Position numbers and translations under genes: made by a program. A stretch of 63,016 nucleotides of DNA, counting the filler. It is 6 parts of 6 records of this genome, joined end to end, with 100 filler letters (N's around TTAATTAATTAA, not from the genome) between each part and the next. Parts side by side here need not be neighbours in the genome. Positions count along the whole stretch, not along the records: positions 1 to 24,990 come from SRR2962707_4458; 5 more parts are not named here. One strand, given 5' to 3'. This document shows, one piece after another, positions 9,679 to 26,039 of this stretch. The notes under the pieces were generated by a model. The model did no database searches, was not told the DNA's origin, and worked only from the letters and a program-made list of their open reading frames with translations. Each line of letters opens with the position of its first letter. Position 1 is the stretch's first letter.

Positions 9679-10509
9679 ATGTCACCAGAACGCATTGGCG
9701 TAGTCATCACTACCTACAATTCCCCACTATGGCTGAGCAAGGTTCTGACGGGCTATGAAAACCAGAGCCAGCCGGACTTTCGGGTGATCATTGCTGATGA
9801 CGGGTCAACCAACGAGACCCGCGACCTCATCGACCGGTTCCGCGAGCGCGGTATCCTGCAGATCGACCACGTGTGGCACGAGGACGACGGCTTTCGCAAG
9901 TGCCAGATCCTCAACAAGGCCATCCGGGAAACCGACTGCGACTATCTGATCTTCACGGACGGCGACTGCATCCCGGAACCGGACTTCATCGCCACCCATC
10001 AACGGCTGGCCGAACCAGGAGTTTTCCTGTCCGGCGGATACATCAAACTCACCATGCCGGTTTCAGAAGCGATTTCCGACGACGATATCCGCAGCGGTGT
10101 CATCTTTGACCCCCAGTGGCTGGTCAGTAAGGGCCAACCGAAGAACCACAAGCTCTGGAAGCTGTCCAGCTCATCCCTGAAGAAGACATTCCTGAATGCC
10201 ATCACGCCGGCAGCCGCCAGTTGGAATGGCATGAACAGCTCCACCTGGACCAAAGACCTGATTGCCGTTAATGGCTTCAACGAAGACATGCAATACGGTG
10301 GCCTGGACCGCGAACTTGGCGAGCGCCTCTGGAACTTTGGTCACAAATCCCGGCAGATTCGCTACAGCACCGTGTGCCTGCATCTGGACCATGCCCGCGG
10401 TTACTCCAAGCCGGAAATCTGGGCAAAGAACCGGGCTATCCGCAAGGCCGTTAAGGACAACCGCACCTTCTGGGCCGAAAACGGCATTGAGAAGAGCCGC
10501 ACTGCATGA
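9679..10509 (+). CDS. GT2 glycosyltransferase
   Basis: VVITTYN, IADDGS, WHEDDGFRK, FTDGDC, VNGFNE, GGLD. Confidence 0.92.
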   Translation: MSPERIGVVITTYNSPLWLSKVLTGYENQSQPDFRVIIADDGSTNETRDLIDRFRERGILQIDHVWHEDDGFRKCQILNKAIRETDCDYLIFTDGDCIPEPDFIATHQRLAEPGVFLSGGYIKLTMPVSEAISDDDIRSGVIFDPQWLVSKGQPKNHKLWKLSSSSLKKTFLNAITPAAASWNGMNSSTWTKDLIAVNGFNEDMQYGGLDRELGERLWNFGHKSRQIRYSTVCLHLDHARGYSKPEIWAKNRAIRKAVKDNRTFWAENGIEKSRTA

Positions 10510-11687
10510 CCGAGCAAGGAAGCATGAGAACCCTGGTTGTGATCCACAGCCTGAAAATGGGCGGCATGGAACGGGTGGCCGTTAACCTGGCGGATGCCTT
10601 TGCGGACGAGGGCCACGAGAGTCACCTGCTGTCCTGCCGCAATCGCCCCAATGATCTCAGCCCTGCCAATTCTGCCGTTCACCTGCATCACTTCGATCAG
10701 TTCCAGGCGTTGATGAAATCGGTTATCGGTATTCCAGTTTTCCTGTTATCCCGCCTTCTACTGGGTGTACTGTTGCCGAAATCCCACTTTATGTGGGTTG
10801 GCTGGCTAAGCGGGTGGCTGCTGAAGAGACACATTCGCGGCCTGGAAAAGCGCTTCGGGCGTTTCGACCGCATTGTTTTCCGAGGCCTGGGTACCTTCAA
10901 GTATTTCTGGTCGTTCCGGGATGACCGCAATGTGTACGTGCTCGAAAACGTTATTCATTATGATCGCCCTCTGTGGCAGAAAAAGCTGGAATGGCAACTG
11001 GTCTTCAATAACCGACACCTGGCTTGCGTTTCCTCTGGTGTGCTGGACTCCGCTCAGGAGGCGTTCAAAAAGGGGGAGATTGAACCGAAAAGCCAGCGGG
11101 TGATCACCAACCCCTGCCCGGTGGAGCAGATTAACGCGTTGGCGCAAGAGGCCGACCCGGACATTCCAGCGGAGCCCTATATCCTCAATGTCGCTCGGCT
11201 CGTGCCTCAGAAAGGCCACGCCTTGCTGCTGGAAGCCTACAAGCAATCAGGAATCGCTCACAAGCTGGTCATTGTAGGCGAGGGTCCGTTGAAAAACGAT
11301 TTGGAGGAGAAAGCGAAGGCCCTAGGCATCGCTGACCGCGTCTTCTTCGCGGGCAAACGCAGAAACCCCTACCCCTGGATGAAGCAGGCGGAACTGTTTG
11401 TGCTGGCCTCAGAATATGAGGGCCTGGGCATCGTATTGACCGAGGCCCTGGCCTGCAACACGCCGATCATGGCTGTAGAGAGCCGCGGTGGCGTACGGGA
11501 TGTGTTCCGTGGCGAATTGGAGGATTTCCTGACGCCACGCACCGTGGATGGTCTGGCAAGCGGGCTCGCAACCGTGGTTAACCGCCTACCGGTCACCGTG
11601 AAACCGGAGTGGCTTGCGCCTTTCCGCAGCCGGGTGGTGGTGAGCGACTTTCTCGAATCCCCGGAAAAGCAAAGCCAACATGACTGA
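10506..11687 (+). CDS. GT4 glycosyltransferase
   Basis: GGMERV, ARLVPQKG, EGLGIVLTEA. Confidence 0.9.
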   Translation: MTEQGSMRTLVVIHSLKMGGMERVAVNLADAFADEGHESHLLSCRNRPNDLSPANSAVHLHHFDQFQALMKSVIGIPVFLLSRLLLGVLLPKSHFMWVGWLSGWLLKRHIRGLEKRFGRFDRIVFRGLGTFKYFWSFRDDRNVYVLENVIHYDRPLWQKKLEWQLVFNNRHLACVSSGVLDSAQEAFKKGEIEPKSQRVITNPCPVEQINALAQEADPDIPAEPYILNVARLVPQKGHALLLEAYKQSGIAHKLVIVGEGPLKNDLEEKAKALGIADRVFFAGKRRNPYPWMKQAELFVLASEYEGLGIVLTEALACNTPIMAVESRGGVRDVFRGELEDFLTPRTVDGLASGLATVVNRLPVTVKPEWLAPFRSRVVVSDFLESPEKQSQHD

Positions 11688-12612
11688 GCACGCCCAACCT
11701 CTCAATATTCTGGTAGCGGGCATTTATTGGTCCGGTTCCGGTGCTGTAGTGGATTACCTCAAGGGACACCCGGACTGCGTCGTGCCCCGGGGTGAATTTA
11801 CCGACTTCAAACGGAGTGGACGAATCGGCAGCCTTCTGGAGGCGGACTCACCCTTCAAGGCAAAATGGCTTGCCAGGATGATGTGGTTCGAAACCGCCAT
11901 GGGCAAACTGCCTGCAGCACAGCTTAAAAAAGCGCGAGGCGCAGACCAGGCCAAGCTTGCTCCAAAGGAGCAGGTGAGACACAACCAGTTGAAGCTTGAA
12001 TACCTTGGCCGCTATCGGAAACATTTAGCCAAAGGCGGTGCGCCCTCGGATAGCCGGATATGGAACGATTGGATGCACGCCGTCGGCCAGGCGTACGCTG
12101 CTAGGGAAAAGGCCATCGTCTGGAACCAGCCGATCTGGGTCGGCAAACACGAAGGGACCTGGCCCGCTGTCTTTACCCCCTTCAAACTGATCGTGGTTCA
12201 CCGAGATCCAGTGGACCAGTTTGCCGAAGTCGTCCGCCAGGGCAAGATCGGCAAGCGTAAATCCGACCCCGCGTTCAATGATAGCGAGAACGACGACATT
12301 GCCTATGTGCTCAAAGGCATCGCCGCAAAAATGGAAAGCCTGATGGCGCTTCAGGCGCAGTTGGGCGAAAGTTATATGCTTGCAGTGAGCTTTGAACGCT
12401 TCGTGAAAGACCACAAAACGGAAGCCCGGAGAGTCTGTGACTTCCTGGATTTCCCGGAAGCGCAACTGCCGTCAGCGCCGTTCAATCCTTCCTACTCCAT
12501 CCGCAATGTCGGCATCGGAGACACGGACCAAATCCGCGGCATGCTCAAGGATCACCAGCCCCTTGTCGACCGACTATATGACCTGAGAACTCAGTTCGAT
12601 AACGCGCAGTAG
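11680..12612 (+). CDS. Sulfotransferase-fold (P-loop) protein with atypical PAPS-binding motifs
   Basis: N-terminal ILVAGIYWSGSGAVVDYLKGHP (5'PSB-like loop), IVVHRDPVDQFAE (3'PB-like), VSFERFV..H....RRVCDFL typical of the family; overlaps the upstream GT4 by 8 nt. Confidence 0.7.
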   Translation: MTEHAQPLNILVAGIYWSGSGAVVDYLKGHPDCVVPRGEFTDFKRSGRIGSLLEADSPFKAKWLARMMWFETAMGKLPAAQLKKARGADQAKLAPKEQVRHNQLKLEYLGRYRKHLAKGGAPSDSRIWNDWMHAVGQAYAAREKAIVWNQPIWVGKHEGTWPAVFTPFKLIVVHRDPVDQFAEVVRQGKIGKRKSDPAFNDSENDDIAYVLKGIAAKMESLMALQAQLGESYMLAVSFERFVKDHKTEARRVCDFLDFPEAQLPSAPFNPSYSIRNVGIGDTDQIRGMLKDHQPLVDRLYDLRTQFDNAQ

Positions 12613-13373
12613 GATGCCAACTCACCTTTTTCCGCCATCGAGGAATAGGCTTCCAGCTCATCCGCGGTATCCACTTCCAGCCAACCGTTGTCCACCAGGC
12701 AGGCCTTCACCGGCCAGCCGGTGTCAATCAGGTGCTGGATAAAGCTCGTCATGTACATGTTATCGAAGTCCTTGCCATCGTAGGTGGCGCTACGGTCCAG
12801 TCTATCGAAAACATCGAGAAACGCCTGCACCTGATCGCCCCGGATCTTGATCAGCCCCATGTATTGAGCCTGGACCTGGCTGTAATCACTGGGCTTCTTG
12901 CCAAGCTCAGTCACAAAACCGGATTCGTTCATAACGAAGGTTTCCGCGTCATCCAACGGCTCCTCCATTCTTAATTGCCACAGGCGCTTCCACTTACGGT
13001 CCGCAGCCAGACAAACCGGCGCATCGCAGTCCAGAACGATTTTCAGAACCGTAGGCTCATAGACGATATCCCCGTAACTGATCAGCAGATCCTCGCCGGG
13101 CTTCATCTTCTCGCGCGCGCAAAAGAGCGTGCGGACCATGTTGGTGGTTGCGTACTCGGGATTGAGGACGAGATCACCGCCTAGAGTGTCCAGGTCATCC
13201 GACCGATAGCCGCCGATGACGGTAATGCCATTGCTCACTCCGCAAGCTGCCATCGCCGCCATCTGACGATGAAGCAGAGGCTTGCCCGCCAGCGCCACCA
13301 TGCATTTGGGGCGGTCGTTGGTGTAGGGGCGAAGTCGGGTGCCCTGCCCTGCGGCCAGTATCAGTGTTTGCAT
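12591..13373 (-). CDS. CTP:phosphoglutamine cytidylyltransferase-like (Cj1416/LicC family NTP transferase)
   Basis: LILAAGQGTRLRPYTNDRPKCMV, NPEYATTNM, YGDIVY, YMGLIK, WLEVD; ATG at 13373 overlaps the upstream stop. Confidence 0.88.
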   Translation of the reverse strand: MQTLILAAGQGTRLRPYTNDRPKCMVALAGKPLLHRQMAAMAACGVSNGITVIGGYRSDDLDTLGGDLVLNPEYATTNMVRTLFCAREKMKPGEDLLISYGDIVYEPTVLKIVLDCDAPVCLAADRKWKRLWQLRMEEPLDDAETFVMNESGFVTELGKKPSDYSQVQAQYMGLIKIRGDQVQAFLDVFDRLDRSATYDGKDFDNMYMTSFIQHLIDTGWPVKACLVDNGWLEVDTADELEAYSSMAEKGELASYCALSN

Positions 13374-14008
13374 GGGGTACCTCTGAAAATACAGTTGAAA
13401 AGTTGTTTGTCGCGCTCGGTGAACGGCGCCTCTCGCTCCGGGTGCCACATGATGCCAGCCCAAGGCAGGCTACGATGCACATACGCCTCGATATCGCCTT
13501 CCGGGCTCAGCAACTGGGGGATGAGTTCCGCCACCAGACCCTCCGGGGAAATTCCCCAGTTATGGAAACTGTTGACGTCCTGGTAGGGGCGAAACCAGCT
13601 ATTTGTCTGTTCAGTTGGTGTCACCGCGTGTCGCACGGCGGTATGACCGGAGACCGGGGTAAGCTGCCCGCCCAGCCAGACGTTCATCATCTGCAGTCCC
13701 CGACAGACTCCGATAACTGGCCACCCCCGCTCGCGTGCAAGCGAAAGCAGGGTTCGTTCCGTCTCATCTCGCTCTGCCGACGTGTTGATGGCATCAGGCA
13801 GGTGAGTGAGATCATTGCCACCCGACAGGATCAGCCCCTCAATTCCCGTCGATGCCAGCCATTCGTTGAGATTGGACAGCGAGTTGGGAATGGGCACGGG
13901 CATGAACCCCAGTGCCTCAAGAAACCGGAACCATTGCTGATCCAGGCAATCCCGGTGCTCACCATAAGACGCAACCACTTCCACGCGCTGACTGACTCCA
14001 ATGCGCAT
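13361..14008 (-). CDS. Peptidase C26 / class I glutamine amidotransferase, gamma-glutamyl-CDP-amidate hydrolase-like (Cj1417)
   Basis: IGVSQRV..YGEHRDCLDQQW, LSGGND, GVCRGLQ (Cys nucleophile), NSFHNWG, MWHPER (His-Glu). Confidence 0.88.
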   Translation of the reverse strand: MRIGVSQRVEVVASYGEHRDCLDQQWFRFLEALGFMPVPIPNSLSNLNEWLASTGIEGLILSGGNDLTHLPDAINTSAERDETERTLLSLARERGWPVIGVCRGLQMMNVWLGGQLTPVSGHTAVRHAVTPTEQTNSWFRPYQDVNSFHNWGISPEGLVAELIPQLLSPEGDIEAYVHRSLPWAGIMWHPEREAPFTERDKQLFNCIFRGTPCKH

Positions 14009-14009
14009 C

Positions 14010-17000
14010 TTAACGGATGACCTCAATTCGCTTGTTGACGGGGTCCAGTTCCAACACGGTTGCCCTCGCCAATGCCTCGTACTTCCCCTCGCCTACGCCA
14101 ATGGCGGCAGGTAGTCCAAACTCTGCGGCCCGTATGGCCATGTGGGAATTGGCACCGCCATACATGGTAATCAACCCGGCAATGCCATGGCCAAACAGCC
14201 AGTCATAACCGGGGTCGGCCTGGGGAATCATGGCAATTTTGCCGGACAGGTTACTCCGCTCGTCAGTGGCTCGTTTTTGCAGATCGACGCACTCGGCGGA
14301 GATCTTCCCGGCACCCACGAAATTCGCGTGGCTATCAGTGTACAGGAAGGCGTAAAAGTCACTTTCTGACAGCAGCAAGGGGGGTAATTCAACCATAGCC
14401 GCTGCCCGGCTGGCCTCATAACCTTCGGTAGCCTGGTCTGCCAGCCAGGAGGCCTCATCGGCCACCGCCACGGTTCCTGACCTCAACGCGGACAGGGCTT
14501 CAACGGAAATACACGCCATCTGCTCCCGCGTTACCCCATGACGCTCTCCGTAACCCGCCAGGCAATTCAGGGCCAGAGAAAGATGCCGGGTAAACACAAA
14601 CTTGGCGTACTCACGGCCCTCGATGGCATTACGCATAAAACGCTCAAGCTGCTCAATGTCACCGGGCAAACCGGCATCTGAAACCGCCTGCGCGAACGTC
14701 TGCCTCTCATTTTCCCACGCGTCCAGAGCGATATGGGAACCCGAGTCGGCGTGCAACTCCGACGCTGAACGCTCAATCACCGGAACCAGGAAATGCTCAG
14801 GGTTATCGCCATAACAGGGCGAGGTTATGTCGTAGGTACCTGGCCGCAAGTGCCGATATTGTTGGGTGAAGGCGGCCATGGACAATTCTTGACGAGCCAC
14901 CTTCGCAGCATCGTCGGTAAACCGGTGGGAAACCGTGCGGATAGAGTTGAGGAACGCATCCATGGCGCCCTGGGACAACACACCTTTTTCGACGGCCGAC
15001 CGAAGCAATGTGATCGCAACAAAGGCACTGCGGGCAAGATGGGCAAACGCCAGGGTTCCGTATCGCCGACACTCTTCAAGCAGCGACAGTGCATCGTCCA
15101 GACTGGCGGCATCAGTGTTCCGGAAACACGCCAGCCGCTCTTCGAAGCGGTCAATTACTTGCAGATCCGCGTCGGTTCGAGCGATGGCGCAGGCAGTGAT
15201 GGTTTTCAATCCCACGCCAAGCCGATCTGCCTCATCGGCATTAAAACCACCCTCGTGGATCAAACGTTCCCGCCAGCGCTCAAAATCCAGCGCGTAGCAG
15301 GTAGGCACCACATCAAACTCAACTTTGTCGTGTAGATGCGGGTGGCGACGTAACCACTCCATGTAGAAGTCCACCAGCCGCCCTGCCAAGCCGTCATCCA
15401 GGGATTGCGGAATGAAAGAGTTGAAGCTGGCGCGAATATCCACGTAAGGGTGCCCGGCAAACATCCTGAGCAACGGCTGGGGGCGAACGTCCCGATAACC
15501 GTATTCCGCTCTCTGGGCTGCCCACACGTCGTCCATGATCAGATAGCGATACAGGCTGGATGCCAGTCGTCCCGGCCGGGTGCCGATGATTTCAGCCGGG
15601 TTCCAGTCCGGCATCACACCGAAACAGGCACGCTTGCCGACAACAAATGGCGCTGGAGCCTGCCACTGCCGAAATCGATCCACGGCGTTCGTCAGCAAGC
15701 TCTCTGCCGCATCACTCTGAGTGAGCTCGTGCTGAACCGCAATCGGGCGCACCTGAAGGATATGGATCAGGCCGCCCTCAGTGATAGCGAATTCCATATC
15801 GAGAGAATCGAAATCCAACAGGTCCTCGACTTCCCTCAGCGCGGGCATCAGTCCCGCCAGGTTCTCCGGCACCCGTACCAGCTTCTCCGGAGCATCCCGA
15901 TGAACAAAGAGGGTTTTGTGATCCCGGCTGGCACCGCTGGTGATGGACTCGGTGCTATTCGTAGTATCGTCGTAATTCACGACATAATACGGAGCCCCCG
16001 AGGACAGGGTTTTGGTGAACGCCACACCACTGGCAATCACCTGTTCCAGCATCGGCTGCACCAGAACCTGGTTGTCGGGGTGGCCATCGGGATAGGAGGC
16101 AATGACCTTCTCAATGGCGGCTCTAAGCTCGCCTTCACTCTGGCGACTGACATTGAGAACACTGGTGTAAGCGCCAGCGTTGGATACCCCGAACCCGTCC
16201 TCTGACAAGGCACTGCTGCGGACAACCAGTTTTTCCGTTTCCGATAGGCGCGCCCCGATCCGGGCGAGTACTTCTGTGTCCAAGTCCTGCCATTCGGCAA
16301 CCGTAAAGCTGACCTGGTCTTCAATACGACTTCTCGTAACCACGCCCTGCAAACGATGGAGCGTCTGCGCCTTGGTGCCCAGGATAAACCGACTGAGATC
16401 GTTCGGCTCGTTCAGTTCTGCCCATCCACCGGCCACATCCACCGCAGCCACACTGAACCCACGAACCCGCAACAGCTCAAGAAGCTGGGTGAGGCTGCCC
16501 TTGCGTATGGCTTCCGGAAAATCCGACTGCCCCGCCAGAAAACCCGCAACCTTGGGCTGCAGCCGAACCAGACCAACGAATTCGGCATCGGCCAGTTCGG
16601 GAAGGATATCCCGCCCCAAACGGGTGATCCGGCCGCCGTGCACGTTCACTTTTTCACATCGCTGTAAATCCTCTTCAGAGCGCCCCTCAAACCGGTGACG
16701 CCAATTGCTGTCCACCAAAACGGCTATATCCGCCTCACTGGAGGATAAAGATTGCACCGCGGAATCCCGAAACAGCACGTCGGAATAGGACACGTAGTGA
16801 ACGACGCGATCATTCAGTGGCGCTTCCAGCAACGACGCCGCCGCACCGGTGGATTGCCAATGAGGGTTCACCGAATAGTGAAGCTCGGGATAACGCTCGG
16901 CAATTTCATCCAGCTGGTATCCGCCCACGAAATGAACGTCGGGCTCTACTGCGCGCATGGAGTGCAATACCCAGTCCAGTACCCGCCTGCGACCGGTTGT

Positions 17001-17093
17001 GCCCCGGAGCACACTATGCTGTTCGCCGCTGAACGGCTTGCCAGCGCCGAGGATGATGAGGCGTGTCTGGTGTGCTCGCTCCGTTGTTCCCAT
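14010..17093 (-). CDS. L-glutamine kinase-like PEP-utilizing enzyme (Cj1418 family) with an N-terminal nucleotidyltransferase-like domain
   Basis: TKAQTL, VRSSALSED..SNAGAY ATP-grasp, LQVRPI, GVMPDWNPAEIIG, ADPGYDWLF, GGANSHMAIRAAE phospho-His domain. First ~238 aa resemble an NTP transferase (IILGAG, YSDVLF, AEFVGL, WAELN). Confidence 0.9.
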   Translation of the reverse strand: MGTTERAHQTRLIILGAGKPFSGEQHSVLRGTTGRRRVLDWVLHSMRAVEPDVHFVGGYQLDEIAERYPELHYSVNPHWQSTGAAASLLEAPLNDRVVHYVSYSDVLFRDSAVQSLSSSEADIAVLVDSNWRHRFEGRSEEDLQRCEKVNVHGGRITRLGRDILPELADAEFVGLVRLQPKVAGFLAGQSDFPEAIRKGSLTQLLELLRVRGFSVAAVDVAGGWAELNEPNDLSRFILGTKAQTLHRLQGVVTRSRIEDQVSFTVAEWQDLDTEVLARIGARLSETEKLVVRSSALSEDGFGVSNAGAYTSVLNVSRQSEGELRAAIEKVIASYPDGHPDNQVLVQPMLEQVIASGVAFTKTLSSGAPYYVVNYDDTTNSTESITSGASRDHKTLFVHRDAPEKLVRVPENLAGLMPALREVEDLLDFDSLDMEFAITEGGLIHILQVRPIAVQHELTQSDAAESLLTNAVDRFRQWQAPAPFVVGKRACFGVMPDWNPAEIIGTRPGRLASSLYRYLIMDDVWAAQRAEYGYRDVRPQPLLRMFAGHPYVDIRASFNSFIPQSLDDGLAGRLVDFYMEWLRRHPHLHDKVEFDVVPTCYALDFERWRERLIHEGGFNADEADRLGVGLKTITACAIARTDADLQVIDRFEERLACFRNTDAASLDDALSLLEECRRYGTLAFAHLARSAFVAITLLRSAVEKGVLSQGAMDAFLNSIRTVSHRFTDDAAKVARQELSMAAFTQQYRHLRPGTYDITSPCYGDNPEHFLVPVIERSASELHADSGSHIALDAWENERQTFAQAVSDAGLPGDIEQLERFMRNAIEGREYAKFVFTRHLSLALNCLAGYGERHGVTREQMACISVEALSALRSGTVAVADEASWLADQATEGYEASRAAAMVELPPLLLSESDFYAFLYTDSHANFVGAGKISAECVDLQKRATDERSNLSGKIAMIPQADPGYDWLFGHGIAGLITMYGGANSHMAIRAAEFGLPAAIGVGEGKYEALARATVLELDPVNKRIEVIR

Positions 17094-17198
17094 GAATCAA
17101 CAATCACTCATTCAATTGACGACAAATCCCCAGATTCCACGAGGGACAAAACCTGATGTAAACTCCGTAGTTTACATCATAGGCGAGCAGACGGCGGC

Positions 17199-17864
17199 AT
17201 GGGTATTACCGAAAAATCCAGATTCGAGCAGCTACGAAGGAACTGGAACAGCCGCCTCCGAGCGTGGCAAACGGATCGACAGAACAAGGCATTATATGGG
17301 GAAGACGCGCCGAGGTTTGCCGAACAACTGTGGGTGCCGATTTCCGAGCTTGAATTTGCCGTCAAGGCGGGAAGCTCAAAACAAAGCGGACAAATCATCC
17401 GTTCCTGGCCCACCGGGGGGCTGGGGCGCGTCGATCAAACCGTCGCCATAAAGGCGTGTGTAGCCCACTGGCGGGGCGGGTTGTCGTGGGAAGAAACGGG
17501 CATTTACGACGCAATGATGGATCAGATACGGAAGCACGGAAAGGTAGACCGCCTCAGGACACTTGAAGACGTTAAACTCCGGTACCGGCAGCTTGATGCC
17601 CTATACGAAAGCGTGCGACAAGCAGGGCGCCTGAGCCCCAGAGATGAGCTGATCCCTGGGAACTTCCGGGAAGAGGGAGGGATACTCGTCAACATTGGTC
17701 CAGACGGCAAGCCCTACTTCGGCAGGAAAGGCAATCATCGTTTAGCGATGGCGATCGCGGCAGGCATTGACCGCATTCCTGCGCAGCTTGGGGTTGTTCA
17801 TATCGAGGGTCTACCTGCACTTCCTGATTATCGAAATGCGCCACCGAATGAAACAGCCAACTAA
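17199..17864 (+). CDS. Hypothetical protein with ParB/Srx-like C-terminal motif
   Basis: ILVNIGPDG...KGNHRLAMA..AGI..IPA resembles the (D)GxHR core of the ParB/sulfiredoxin fold; divergent from the phosphoramidate operon. Confidence 0.65.
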   Translation: MGITEKSRFEQLRRNWNSRLRAWQTDRQNKALYGEDAPRFAEQLWVPISELEFAVKAGSSKQSGQIIRSWPTGGLGRVDQTVAIKACVAHWRGGLSWEETGIYDAMMDQIRKHGKVDRLRTLEDVKLRYRQLDALYESVRQAGRLSPRDELIPGNFREEGGILVNIGPDGKPYFGRKGNHRLAMAIAAGIDRIPAQLGVVHIEGLPALPDYRNAPPNETAN

Positions 17865-25091: not shown

Positions 25092-26039
25092 TCGATTACC
25101 CAGTTCGGCGTCAGCTTCAAACGGCTGGGCTGGAACTGTACTTTCGTCGACTGTACCAAACCTGAAACGATCAAGGATGCGATCACGCCAAAAACCAAGG
25201 CGATTTTTATCGAAGTCCTGGCAAACCCGGGAGGTGTCGTCCTCGATCTTGAAGCCATAGCCGCCATCGCCAAGGATGCAGGTATCCCGCTGATCGTCGA
25301 CAACACGCTGGCAACCCCGTATCTGTGCCGCCCCATCGAATGGGGTGCGGATATCGTCTGCCATTCCATGACCAAGTTCCTGCAGGGTCACGGGACGTCC
25401 GTCGGCGGGGTCATCGTTGAAAGCGGCAAGTTCGACTGGACCTGTGCCAACGGCGGTCCGGGCTTCCCGACAATGACTGAGCCCGATCCGGCCTATCACG
25501 GCCTGACGTTCTATGAGACCTTCGGTGACTTCGGTTTCACCATGAAGGCGCGTGCCGTCGCGCTTCGTGATTTCGGCCCGGCGCTGTCGCCCACCAACGC
25601 ATTCAACACCCTAACGGGCACCGAGACCCTGCACGTGCGCATGGACCGGCATGTTGAAAACGCGCTCAAGGTTGCTGAATTCCTGGAGAGTCATCCAGCC
25701 GTCGACTGGGTCAGCTACGCGGGCCTCAAATCCAGCCCGTACCACGATCTGGCCAAAAAATACCTCCCCAAGGGGGCGGGCGCCGTCTTTACCTTCGGCC
25801 TCAAGGGTGGCTTCGAAGCCGGCGTGAAAATGGTCGAGAAGATCAATATCTTCTCCCACCTCGCCAACATCGGCGACACCAAATCACTGATCCTGCATCC
25901 GGCCTCGACCACGCACCGGCAGCTGACTGACGAACAACGGGAATCCGCCGGCGCTACGGATCAGACGATCCGGCTGTCGATCGGGCTTGAAGATGCGGAT
26001 GACCTGATCCGTGATCTCGATGAAGCGATGAGCGGCTGA
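25092..26039 (+). CDS. metY: O-acetylhomoserine aminocarboxypropyltransferase/sulfhydrylase (5' truncated)
   Basis: Open frame from the contig start; IVDNTLATP, HSMTKFLQGHG (PLP Lys), HLANIGD, HPASTTH. Confidence 0.93.
   Translation, partial: SITQFGVSFKRLGWNCTFVDCTKPETIKDAITPKTKAIFIEVLANPGGVVLDLEAIAAIAKDAGIPLIVDNTLATPYLCRPIEWGADIVCHSMTKFLQGHGTSVGGVIVESGKFDWTCANGGPGFPTMTEPDPAYHGLTFYETFGDFGFTMKARAVALRDFGPALSPTNAFNTLTGTETLHVRMDRHVENALKVAEFLESHPAVDWVSYAGLKSSPYHDLAKKYLPKGAGAVFTFGLKGGFEAGVKMVEKINIFSHLANIGDTKSLILHPASTTHRQLTDEQRESAGATDQTIRLSIGLEDADDLIRDLDEAMSG

Follow-up and report, generated by a model that had tools for sequence, protein, structure and literature searches.

The stretch of DNA analyzed here (63,016 nucleotides (nt), referred to as the window) contains between positions 209 and 23566 a lipopolysaccharide (LPS)-core (waa) locus, as judged from its Pfam and NCBIfam domain content, and belongs to Marinobacter, a protein of 221 amino acids (aa) encoded at 17199-17864 being 100 % identical to a Marinobacter salarius record. 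Positions 11680-17093 of this locus hold an accessory four-gene cassette inserted between core genes. Three of its genes, in the following called the trio, encode a kinase, a C26 hydrolase and a LicC-like cytidylyltransferase (NTase) and are predicted to supply cytidine diphosphoramidate (CDP-amidate); the fourth encodes a sulfotransferase-fold protein, called Sulfo together with its relatives, which we propose as the phosphoramidate transferase acting on the LPS core. The genes that a first-pass annotation had named in this region were all recovered in place by open reading frame (ORF) calls, domain searches and translation.

The trio is encoded on the minus strand. The kinase (14010-17093, 1027 aa) combines a nucleotidyltransferase-like part, residues 1 to about 231 (16386-17093), with a Cj1418-family ATP-grasp and phosphohistidine swivel protein in residues 232-1026, and trios whose kinase carries this extra N-terminal domain (N-domain) are termed fused. 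It is followed by a C26/GATase1 hydrolase (13361-14008), the predicted γ-glutamyl-CDP-amidate hydrolase in the role of Cj1417, and by the 260-aa NTase (12591-13373), the predicted cytidine triphosphate (CTP):phosphoglutamine cytidylyltransferase in the role of Cj1416. The tight coupling of the three genes that had been reported earlier can be read directly from the DNA: the kinase stop codon TAA at 14012-14010 is separated by a 1-nt gap from the C26 ATG at 14008, and the C26 stop codon (13363-13361) lies beyond the NTase ATG at 13373, so that these two genes overlap by 13 nt. Sulfo (11680-12612, plus strand, 310 aa) is convergent with NTase, their 3′ ends overlapping by 22 nt, and its start overlaps by 8 nt the end of an upstream glycosyltransferase gene of family 4 (GT4; 10506-11687, plus strand, PF00534), to which it is translationally coupled. 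This GT4 gene is part of the core operon backbone and is kept at 75-96 % identity in Marinobacter loci with and without the cassette; likewise, the cassette as a whole is flanked by backbone core genes that are conserved in cassette-free Marinobacter loci. A promoter and terminator scan returned nothing beyond shuffled expectation.

That the trio lies within an LPS-core locus was also borne out by the domain search. The locus starts with TolC, WaaA, LpxL, an Elm1-like protein, two GT4 genes and an SGNH hydrolase, continues with a YrbL-like protein, a second LpxL-type acyltransferase, a family 2 glycosyltransferase (GT2) and a GT4 gene, the cassette and a further GT2 gene, and ends with a Wzy_C/WaaL-like protein, a family 25 glycosyltransferase (GT25), a Kdo/WaaP-family kinase-like protein, KdkA and a heptosyltransferase. 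The cassette might instead serve another glycan such as a capsule, an O-antigen or a glycoprotein, its position in the core locus being incidental. Relatives of the trio do occur in many contexts, for example in a flagellin-glycosylation island of Marinobacter genome G045 and in polysaccharide loci of other genera, and the locus itself holds the Wzy_C/WaaL-like ligase gene; nevertheless, 13 Marinobacter loci have the cassette at one and the same position, with core glycosyltransferase genes on one side and KdkA/heptosyltransferase on the other, and the coupling of Sulfo to a core GT4 gene points in the same direction, which makes a different target glycan highly improbable in our view.

Judging by its family assignments, the donor module is clearly related to the pathway for O-methyl phosphoramidate (MeOPN) in Campylobacter jejuni, in which Cj1418 is the L-glutamine kinase, Cj1416 the CTP:phosphoglutamine cytidylyltransferase, Cj1417 the γ-glutamyl-CDP-amidate hydrolase and Cj1415 the CDP-amidate 3′-kinase (see PMC6429109). 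The kinase matches NF004508/PRK05849 with 888.5 bits over residues 232-1026, above the curated cut-off of 501, which upholds its designation as a Cj1418 homologue, and it contains recognizable PPDK_N (PF01326, E 6.7e-13) and PEP-utilizers (PF00391, E 1.3e-10) domains as well as the motifs MPDWNPAEIIG and GGANSHMAIR listed for it in the first-pass annotation. It is 93 % identical to the homologue of M. algicola DG893, and a sequence search of the PDB returned no solved relative for the kinase core. For the C26 hydrolase (PF07722, E 3.3e-22), the best NCBIfam match is NF045546, the γ-glutamyl-CDP-amidate hydrolase model, with 120.5 bits against 32.8 for the next best. This score is below the equivalog cut-off of 250; as the C26 protein of the canonical-type cassette in Marinobacter G045 itself scores 90.5 on the same model, the cut-off is narrow. 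NTase carries the NTP_transf_3 (PF12804) and PF00483 domains, has LicC (1jyk) as its best solved relative (E 1.5e-10 with the single sequence, 1.9e-22 with the profile) and retains an invariant L-A-A-G-x-G-x-R-L-x-P...P-K signature with loop and lysine intact. No entry named phosphoglutamine cytidylyltransferase was among the best 60 of 100 PDB matches to it, and a search with the unfused Marinobacter kinase gave none with a Campylobacter source name among the 120 matches listed (of 7267).

Compared through these family models, the window shares with the C. jejuni pathway the kinase family, a C26 hydrolase that scores best against the Cj1417 model, and the cytidylyltransferase, in the kinase-hydrolase-cytidylyltransferase order also seen in the canonical-type Marinobacter cassette. 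It differs in the degenerate domain fused to the kinase, in having neither a Cj1415-type kinase nor a methyltransferase, in its location in an LPS-core instead of a capsule locus, in its sulfotransferase-fold candidate transferase and in its predicted product, which would be unmethylated. The N-domain is seen neither by Pfam nor by a PDB sequence search, while its profile, built from 63 loci, aligns to the NTase profile in hhalign with 99.85 % probability (E 1.6e-30, 224 columns, 21 % identity). It has a five-residue gap in place of the G-x-G-T-R-L-R-P stretch, and neither the P-K lysine nor the final Asp of W-x-E-x-D is present; the domain is nevertheless conserved, with a mean column identity of 49 % over 19 sequences. 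We regard it as a putative catalytically degenerate or altered paralogue of the cytidylyltransferase, probably with a role in binding, scaffolding or regulation; a predicted complex of N-domain and NTase scored 0.00, which weighs neither way. The earlier description as a minimal system of three genes thus understated the anatomy, as the kinase carries a fourth, cytidylyltransferase-like domain.

Relatives of the fused kinase were collected from species-representative genomes and the best 80 of 150 loci were kept, to which all counts out of 80 refer. They span Marinobacter, Pseudomonas, Legionella, Halomonas, Idiomarina, Vibrio, haloarchaea and many metagenome-assembled genomes (MAGs). By tblastn, C26 was located in 78 and NTase in 79 of the 80 loci, some of the NTase matches being cross-hits to the N-domain; ORF clustering called kinase, C26 and NTase in 80, 69 and 68 loci, respectively, and their order is kept in 68. 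A gene resembling adenosine 5′-phosphosulfate (APS) kinase, the family to which a 3′-kinase would belong, occurs within the flanks of three loci, and the fused trio is therefore a widespread variant without 3′-kinase. The claim that the system is undescribed holds insofar as we found no printed description of the fused trio, the literature that our searches turned up discussing the pathway for Campylobacter only, plus one prediction for Borg elements; the arrangement itself is far from confined to the window, as the 80 loci kept from 150 relatives demonstrate.

The module might also produce a different activated compound, with the kinase acting on another amide or amine, or with CDP-glutamine or another CDP-linked group being transferred and the N-domain active on a second substrate. 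Substrate specificity is assigned from family membership only, C26 scores below its equivalog cut-off, the strong conservation of the N-domain implies some function, and LicC-like enzymes take varied phospho-substrates, as exemplified by CpgD (PMC12275187). We still consider such a compound quite unlikely in light of the kinase score on the Cj1418-family model, the missing signature loop, Lys and Asp of the N-domain, and the glutamine-amidotransferase-type hydrolase adjoining the kinase in 78/80 loci, which makes sense only if a γ-glutamyl group needs removing.

Many of the fused trios, found in Pseudomonas, Vibrio, Woeseiaceae and others, are accompanied by a TagF-like gene (PF04464). They resemble the window in their fused kinase, C26 and NTase (40-60 % identity) and in the lack of a 3′-kinase, but often include genes for a membrane protein of the sulfatase family, a YidC-like protein and a protein of 450 aa. 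The window contains none of these genes and has the sulfotransferase-fold gene instead; no TagF-like gene was found anywhere in it by tblastn with three such queries. Outside Marinobacter, the fused trio is part of a larger conserved module in L015 (7764-18983) and about 20-30 other loci from the same range of organisms. A 700-aa membrane protein of the sulfatase family (LtaS/EptA-like), the trio and the TagF-like gene are joined there by a protein whose C-terminal part is a YidC/60KD_IMP domain and by one of 450 aa that weakly matches Formyl_trans_N.

The absence of a Cj1415-like APS kinase and of a methyltransferase, noted already in the first-pass annotation, was reproduced at several levels. 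No PF01583-type gene was detected among the locus ORFs with Pfam and NCBIfam, tblastn with two APS-kinase queries against the whole window returned only a 30-residue P-loop match (E 4.8e-4), and no ORF of the locus between 209 and 24067 contains a methyltransferase domain. Marinobacter G045 serves as a control, since its cassette, in which an unfused 772-aa kinase is followed by C26 and NTase in trio order, yielded an APS-kinase-like gene (PF01583 111.8 bits, NF004041 184.5 bits) and a methyltransferase, with a Sulfotransfer_1-like gene nearby. Our methods therefore recognize such parts when they are present, and the window has none. This canonical-type cassette (L149:3656-18763) lies in an island for flagellin glycosylation, which also holds two flagellin genes and a Maf-type glycosyltransferase, suggesting methylated phosphoramidate on the flagellar glycan of G045. 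Its sulfotransferase-like and unknown genes were considered as Sulfo relatives and rejected, as hhalign against the Sulfo profile showed no relationship.

To extend this beyond the window, we turned to a census of 191 Marinobacter species genomes (genomes are designated G, loci L), 14 of which carry the cassette; all co-occurrence counts given for them ignore shared ancestry. In G001 and G002, the closest relatives examined for genome-wide context (93 % identity at the kinase), the sole APS-kinase family gene is a standard CysC (PRK03846 318 bits; PRK05541 110 bits, below its cut-off of 127), which is found at a great distance from the locus (2.36 Mb in G001) beside a sugar dehydratase and an anion symporter. 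CysC is present in 11/14 cassette genomes compared to 80/177 others (Fisher p = 0.024, phylogeny ignored), and use of 3′-phosphoadenosine 5′-phosphosulfate (PAPS) is therefore possible in those 11. The other three (G016, G094 and G091) have no APS-kinase family gene, only 19-25-bit P-loop cross-matches, which, provided that their possibly incomplete assemblies miss no such gene, argues there against both PAPS and a 3′-phosphorylated donor. Such a donor would arise if the housekeeping CysC or another kinase phosphorylated CDP-amidate and Sulfo used the PAPS-like product. The enrichment of CysC, the retention of the invariant Arg of the 3′-phosphate motif in Sulfo and the G045 cassette, which joins a Cj1415-like kinase to a sulfotransferase-like gene, would all fit this scenario. 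It appears very unlikely all the same, considering not only the three genomes without the kinase family and the standard, distant CysC of G001, but also the Glu or Asp that takes the place of the 3′-phosphate Ser across the Sulfo family and the 77/80 fused-trio loci without such a kinase in their flanks.

With neither a 3′-kinase nor a methyltransferase nor a TagF-like gene in the locus or the window, a different transferase is needed, as had been proposed in the first-pass annotation, and the adjacent Sulfo gene emerged as the best candidate by virtue of its co-variation with the trio and its mutual exclusion with TagF-like genes. Sulfo matches PF13469 (Sulfotransfer_3, E 1.8e-11), and its AlphaFold2 model (predicted local distance difference test score, pLDDT, 93.4) retrieved sulfotransferases only in the top 30 Foldseek rows, including CurM ST and TPST2, with E 4.7e-7 to 1e-4 and probability 1.00. 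The ESM Atlas gave matches to generic sulfotransferase clusters only, and a single-protein scan with Sulfo returned two near-identical loci only.

Among the 191 Marinobacter genomes, the kinase is found in 17, the Sulfo family in 19 and both in 14; in 13 of these 14 a single contig holds both genes at a distance of about 1.4 kb, while the remaining assembly is fragmented. The three genomes with the kinase only are G045 with its canonical-type cassette and two that have a TagF-like gene instead, while the five with Sulfo only comprise HL-55 (clade A), two clade-B genomes (about 50 % identity), one clade-C genome (45 %) and one with a 24 % match. In the neighborhood co-occurrence check suggested earlier, intact clade-A Sulfo genes (at least 62 % identity) sit with the trio in 14/14 cases. 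HL-55 has the sole clade-A gene without the trio; there the trio is deleted, and the protein sequence departs from the others at about residue 258, with loss of the conserved C-terminus. Strain SS21 has neither trio nor Sulfo, and a 31-residue remnant of the kinase N-terminus adjoins the backbone GT4 gene. From the clade-A pattern and these two exceptions we conclude that trio and Sulfo behave like one four-gene unit. Fisher tests for association with the trio, phylogeny ignored, gave 1.2e-14 for Sulfo and 2.5e-11 for the ParB-like neighbor gene described below; since the latter value is small as well, the argument for Sulfo rests on the exception pattern and not on p-values.

Outside Marinobacter, the family recurs next to the trio. 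Searching 1368 ORFs from the 80 loci and the window with the Sulfo profile retrieved 13 Marinobacter genes and three others, each directly beside a trio: one in Natronospira elongata (E 1.7e-15, also PF13469), one in a Sulfitobacter MAG (E 1.6e-11) and one in Legionella septentrionalis (E 6.8e-11), the last fused to heparinase-like domains. These three share an aromatic-S-G-(S/A)-(G/S)-A loop, R-D-P-x-D-Q and a C-terminal S-x-(R/K)-N. The Legionella protein (L013:6983-9889, 968 aa) represents an unusual fusion of an N-terminal Sulfo-family domain with heparinase II/III N and C domains. Beside the trio, a TagF-like gene is present in 47/80 loci, a Sulfo-family gene in 15/80, both in 0/80 and neither in 18/80 (eight of them with short flanks), and such mutual exclusion would be expected if the two kinds of enzyme were alternatives for a single step.

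PAPS sulfotransferases are generally characterized by a basic residue (Lys/Arg) in the 5′-phosphosulfate-binding loop. Sulfo shares the fold and the Arg of the 3′-phosphate motif with PAPS-dependent enzymes (Sulfotransfer_3; CurM ST, TPST2, heparan sulfate 3-O-sulfotransferase), but differs from them at the donor site and in its genetic tie to cytidine-nucleotide donor cassettes instead of PAPS genes. In a profile alignment with 3-O-sulfotransferase-3, the loop Lys corresponds to Trp17 and the next Arg to Gly, and the Ser following R-D-P in the 3′-phosphate motif to Glu183 (Asp in clade C), while Arg175 of this motif is invariant in the family. In clades A and B this loop position is occupied by Trp17; the relatives from Natronospira, Legionella and Sulfitobacter have an aromatic residue there, and only clade C has Arg. 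As the alignment is weak, with 21.5 bits overall and 4.9 bits for the loop segment, we use this mapping as supporting evidence only.

A second donor cassette accompanies the sister clade B. The clade-B Sulfo of G046 is intact on translation (307 aa), which we infer for that of G179 as well, and is directly followed (L146:8907-13398) by a CTP_transf_like-PEP_mutase fusion, a decarboxylase dependent on thiamine pyrophosphate (TPP) and an Fe-alcohol dehydrogenase (Fe-ADH). The cytidylyltransferase-PEP mutase fusion occurs in 2/191 Marinobacter genomes, which are precisely the two clade-B genomes (G046; G179, L147/L168), and adjoins Sulfo in both. In Fom1-type systems, the set of cytidylyltransferase-PEP mutase fusion, TPP decarboxylase and Fe-ADH leads to hydroxyethylphosphonate activated with cytidine monophosphate (CMP), CMP-hydroxyethylphosphonate (PMC6697681). 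By analogy, this compound would be the product of the clade-B cassette, and a phosphonate-decorated LPS core is predicted for the two clade-B Marinobacter species. The Fom1-type cassette is absent from the window but occupies the same place after the sister-clade Sulfo, and its donor differs from the N-P donor predicted for the window in having a C-P bond. Given that CDP-amidate and CMP-hydroxyethylphosphonate have a common cytidine-5′-phosphate-O-P(X) layout without 3′-phosphate, the simplest reading is one transferase family for both.

Sulfo could also be a conventional PAPS-dependent sulfotransferase of the LPS core that only happens to share a variable segment with a CDP-amidate-producing trio, which would fit its Sulfotransfer_3 match and clear sulfotransferase fold; the true transferase would then be another gene, such as the ParB-like neighbor, a glycosyltransferase-like protein or a gene elsewhere. 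PAPS supply through CysC in 11/14 cassette genomes is compatible with this alternative, and so are the intact clade-C member (G146), near which neither of the two cytidylyl-donor cassettes is found, and a distant member (L170, 28 %) located 8 kb from a CysC gene. It is harder to reconcile with the three cassette genomes lacking an APS-kinase family gene and hence an evident PAPS supply, with the replaced loop Lys, Arg and 3′-phosphate Ser, and with a clade-A copy that loses its C-terminus or is deleted where the trio is lost. Neither would it be expected that a CMP-phosphonate cassette accompanies the sister clade in 2/2 genomes, that related domains adjoin the trio in three other genera, or that the family never stands beside the trio together with a TagF-like gene. 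Overall, we judge a PAPS-dependent Sulfo to be unlikely, though it deserves to be taken seriously.

The ParB-like gene (17199-17864, plus strand) encodes the 221-aa protein mentioned at the outset, which weakly resembles ParB and sulfiredoxin (Srx). Without a Pfam or NCBIfam match, it was modeled with AlphaFold2 (pLDDT 93.9); Foldseek returned weak matches (E 0.09-1), led by ParB 7bm8 (E 0.09) and sulfiredoxin 6ky4 (E 0.17), and VIA gave consistent but weak Z values of 5.2 for sulfiredoxin (85 residues), 4.2 for PadC, 4.0 for KorB and 3.9 for SbnI. With regard to the G-x-x-R-type nucleotide-binding motif of the ParB/Srx superfamily, G178, H180 and R181 are invariant in the family of this protein, which may be a nucleotide-dependent core-modifying enzyme. 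The family is present in 39/191 Marinobacter genomes, that is, in 14/14 cassette genomes and in 25 genomes without the trio, and in several Marinobacter core loci the gene stands beside the backbone GT4 gene without trio and sulfotransferase-like gene. A profile search returned 54 loci, 14 from Marinobacter and 40 from other genera, mostly Rhodobacterales. The trio was found in 0/40 of the non-Marinobacter loci, within flanks of up to 8 kb and with some contigs short, while among the 14 Marinobacter loci one (L094) has the full trio and L093 keeps the kinase N-terminal remnant only. Being widespread without the trio, this gene, which the first-pass annotation had named as flanking the operon, is not specific to the system; we class it as a backbone gene and not a cassette member, and for the same reason we rejected it as a substitute 3′-kinase in our main interpretation. 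Its occurrence without the trio in 25 Marinobacter genomes and all 40 non-Marinobacter loci speaks equally against it as the true transferase, whereas its presence in all 14 cassette genomes and the two homologues that flank the trio in Natronospira speak for it; a helper role is possible. In the 39 Marinobacter species, members of this small family lie in LPS-core loci; those of Rhodobacterales (Marivita, Salipiger, Puniceibacterium), of Pontibacter and of others belong to loci of glycan type (L090-L143).

Based on homology and context, the following route can be proposed. The LicC-like enzyme would join the product of the preceding kinase step to CMP from CTP, giving CDP-L-glutamine, from which the C26 hydrolase would release glutamate to leave CDP-amidate. 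No 3′-phosphorylation or methylation would follow, and Sulfo would use CDP-amidate directly, moving the terminal P(O)(O-)NH2 moiety of this donor onto a core-sugar hydroxyl at the cytoplasmic face with release of CMP, a transfer that would geometrically mirror sulfuryl transfer from PAPS. We give this full mechanism, CDP-amidate made without 3′-phosphorylation and then transferred to the LPS core by Sulfo, about an even chance of being correct. More tentatively, and with somewhat less confidence than not, we suggest that sulfotransferase-fold proteins with the aromatic-S-G-S-G loop constitute an unrecognized class that transfers a terminal phosphoryl-type group from cytidine nucleotides without 3′-phosphate to glycans and releases CMP. 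Such a class might transfer phosphoramidyl groups from CDP-amidate or phosphonyl groups from CMP-hydroxyethylphosphonate and place unmethylated P-NH2, in two species phosphonate, on the Marinobacter core, a proposal for which the prospects likewise fall a little short of balanced.

Several observations weigh against the full mechanism. To the C26 score, the weak donor-site alignment, the distribution of CysC and of the ParB-like gene, and the Sulfo members without a donor cassette must be added that the 14 cassette genomes may reflect only a few gain and loss events, that any orthology to Cj1416, Cj1417, Cj1421 and Cj1422 is presumptive, and that a literature search found no Marinobacter core structure. 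Precedents exist for both the product and the type of transfer. Unmethylated phosphoramide on the LPS core is described for Xanthomonas campestris and Shewanella MR-4 (PMC8042644, PMC3210612); no Xanthomonas or Shewanella locus was among the trio loci returned, the genomes with phosphoramide cores not themselves having been searched. TagF-like enzymes do carry phospho-X groups over from CDP-X donors to glycans, an example being FtaD from Clostridioides difficile, a TagF-like CDP-N-methylthreonine:N-acetylglucosamine (GlcNAc) phosphotransferase whose activity was shown in vitro (bioRxiv 10.64898/2026.02.12.704994). In the manner proposed for Sulfo, FtaD moves a CDP-activated non-sugar group together with its phosphate onto a glycan and releases CMP, but it differs in its TagF-like instead of sulfotransferase-like fold, in its donor and in its target, a flagellin glycan.

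To our knowledge, P-N decoration of surface glycans has been worked out for the Campylobacter capsule only, and the transfer step has not been reconstituted there. The locus described here puts the donor module into the LPS core without 3′-kinase and methyltransferases and points to a specific candidate transferase. If true, the proposed class would fill in the transfer step that has long been missing from phosphoramidate decoration of glycans and would provide genes that could underlie the phosphoramide detected chemically in certain LPS cores; as one family is paired, at one chromosomal position, with a cytidine donor cassette of either the N-P or the C-P kind, it could define a new sulfotransferase-fold activity. 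Natural variants are at hand. The Sulfo gene is present in M. algicola DG893, in M. daepoensis DSM 16072 and, as the 71 %-identical MARHY0660, in M. nauticus ATCC 49840, and an intact cassette is missing from Marinobacter sp. SS21, M. excellens HL-55 and M. lipolyticus SM19. P-NH2 would alter the charge of the core and could therefore affect cation binding, antimicrobial-peptide susceptibility and phage receptor identity.

Two further features of the window lie outside the cassette. The G+C content drops to 0.50-0.53 between 18001 and 22000, compared to 0.55-0.61 in the first 17 kb; this segment spans the GT2, WaaL-like and GT25 genes, which are the least conserved between Marinobacter loci (absent or 26-69 % identical), and looks like a variable outer-core and ligase segment. 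Downstream of the locus, a 223-aa ORF (25368-26039, plus strand) matches the C-terminal half alone of O-acetylhomoserine aminocarboxypropyltransferase (profile positions 207-425 of 427) and, from this partial match, may be truncated or frameshifted.

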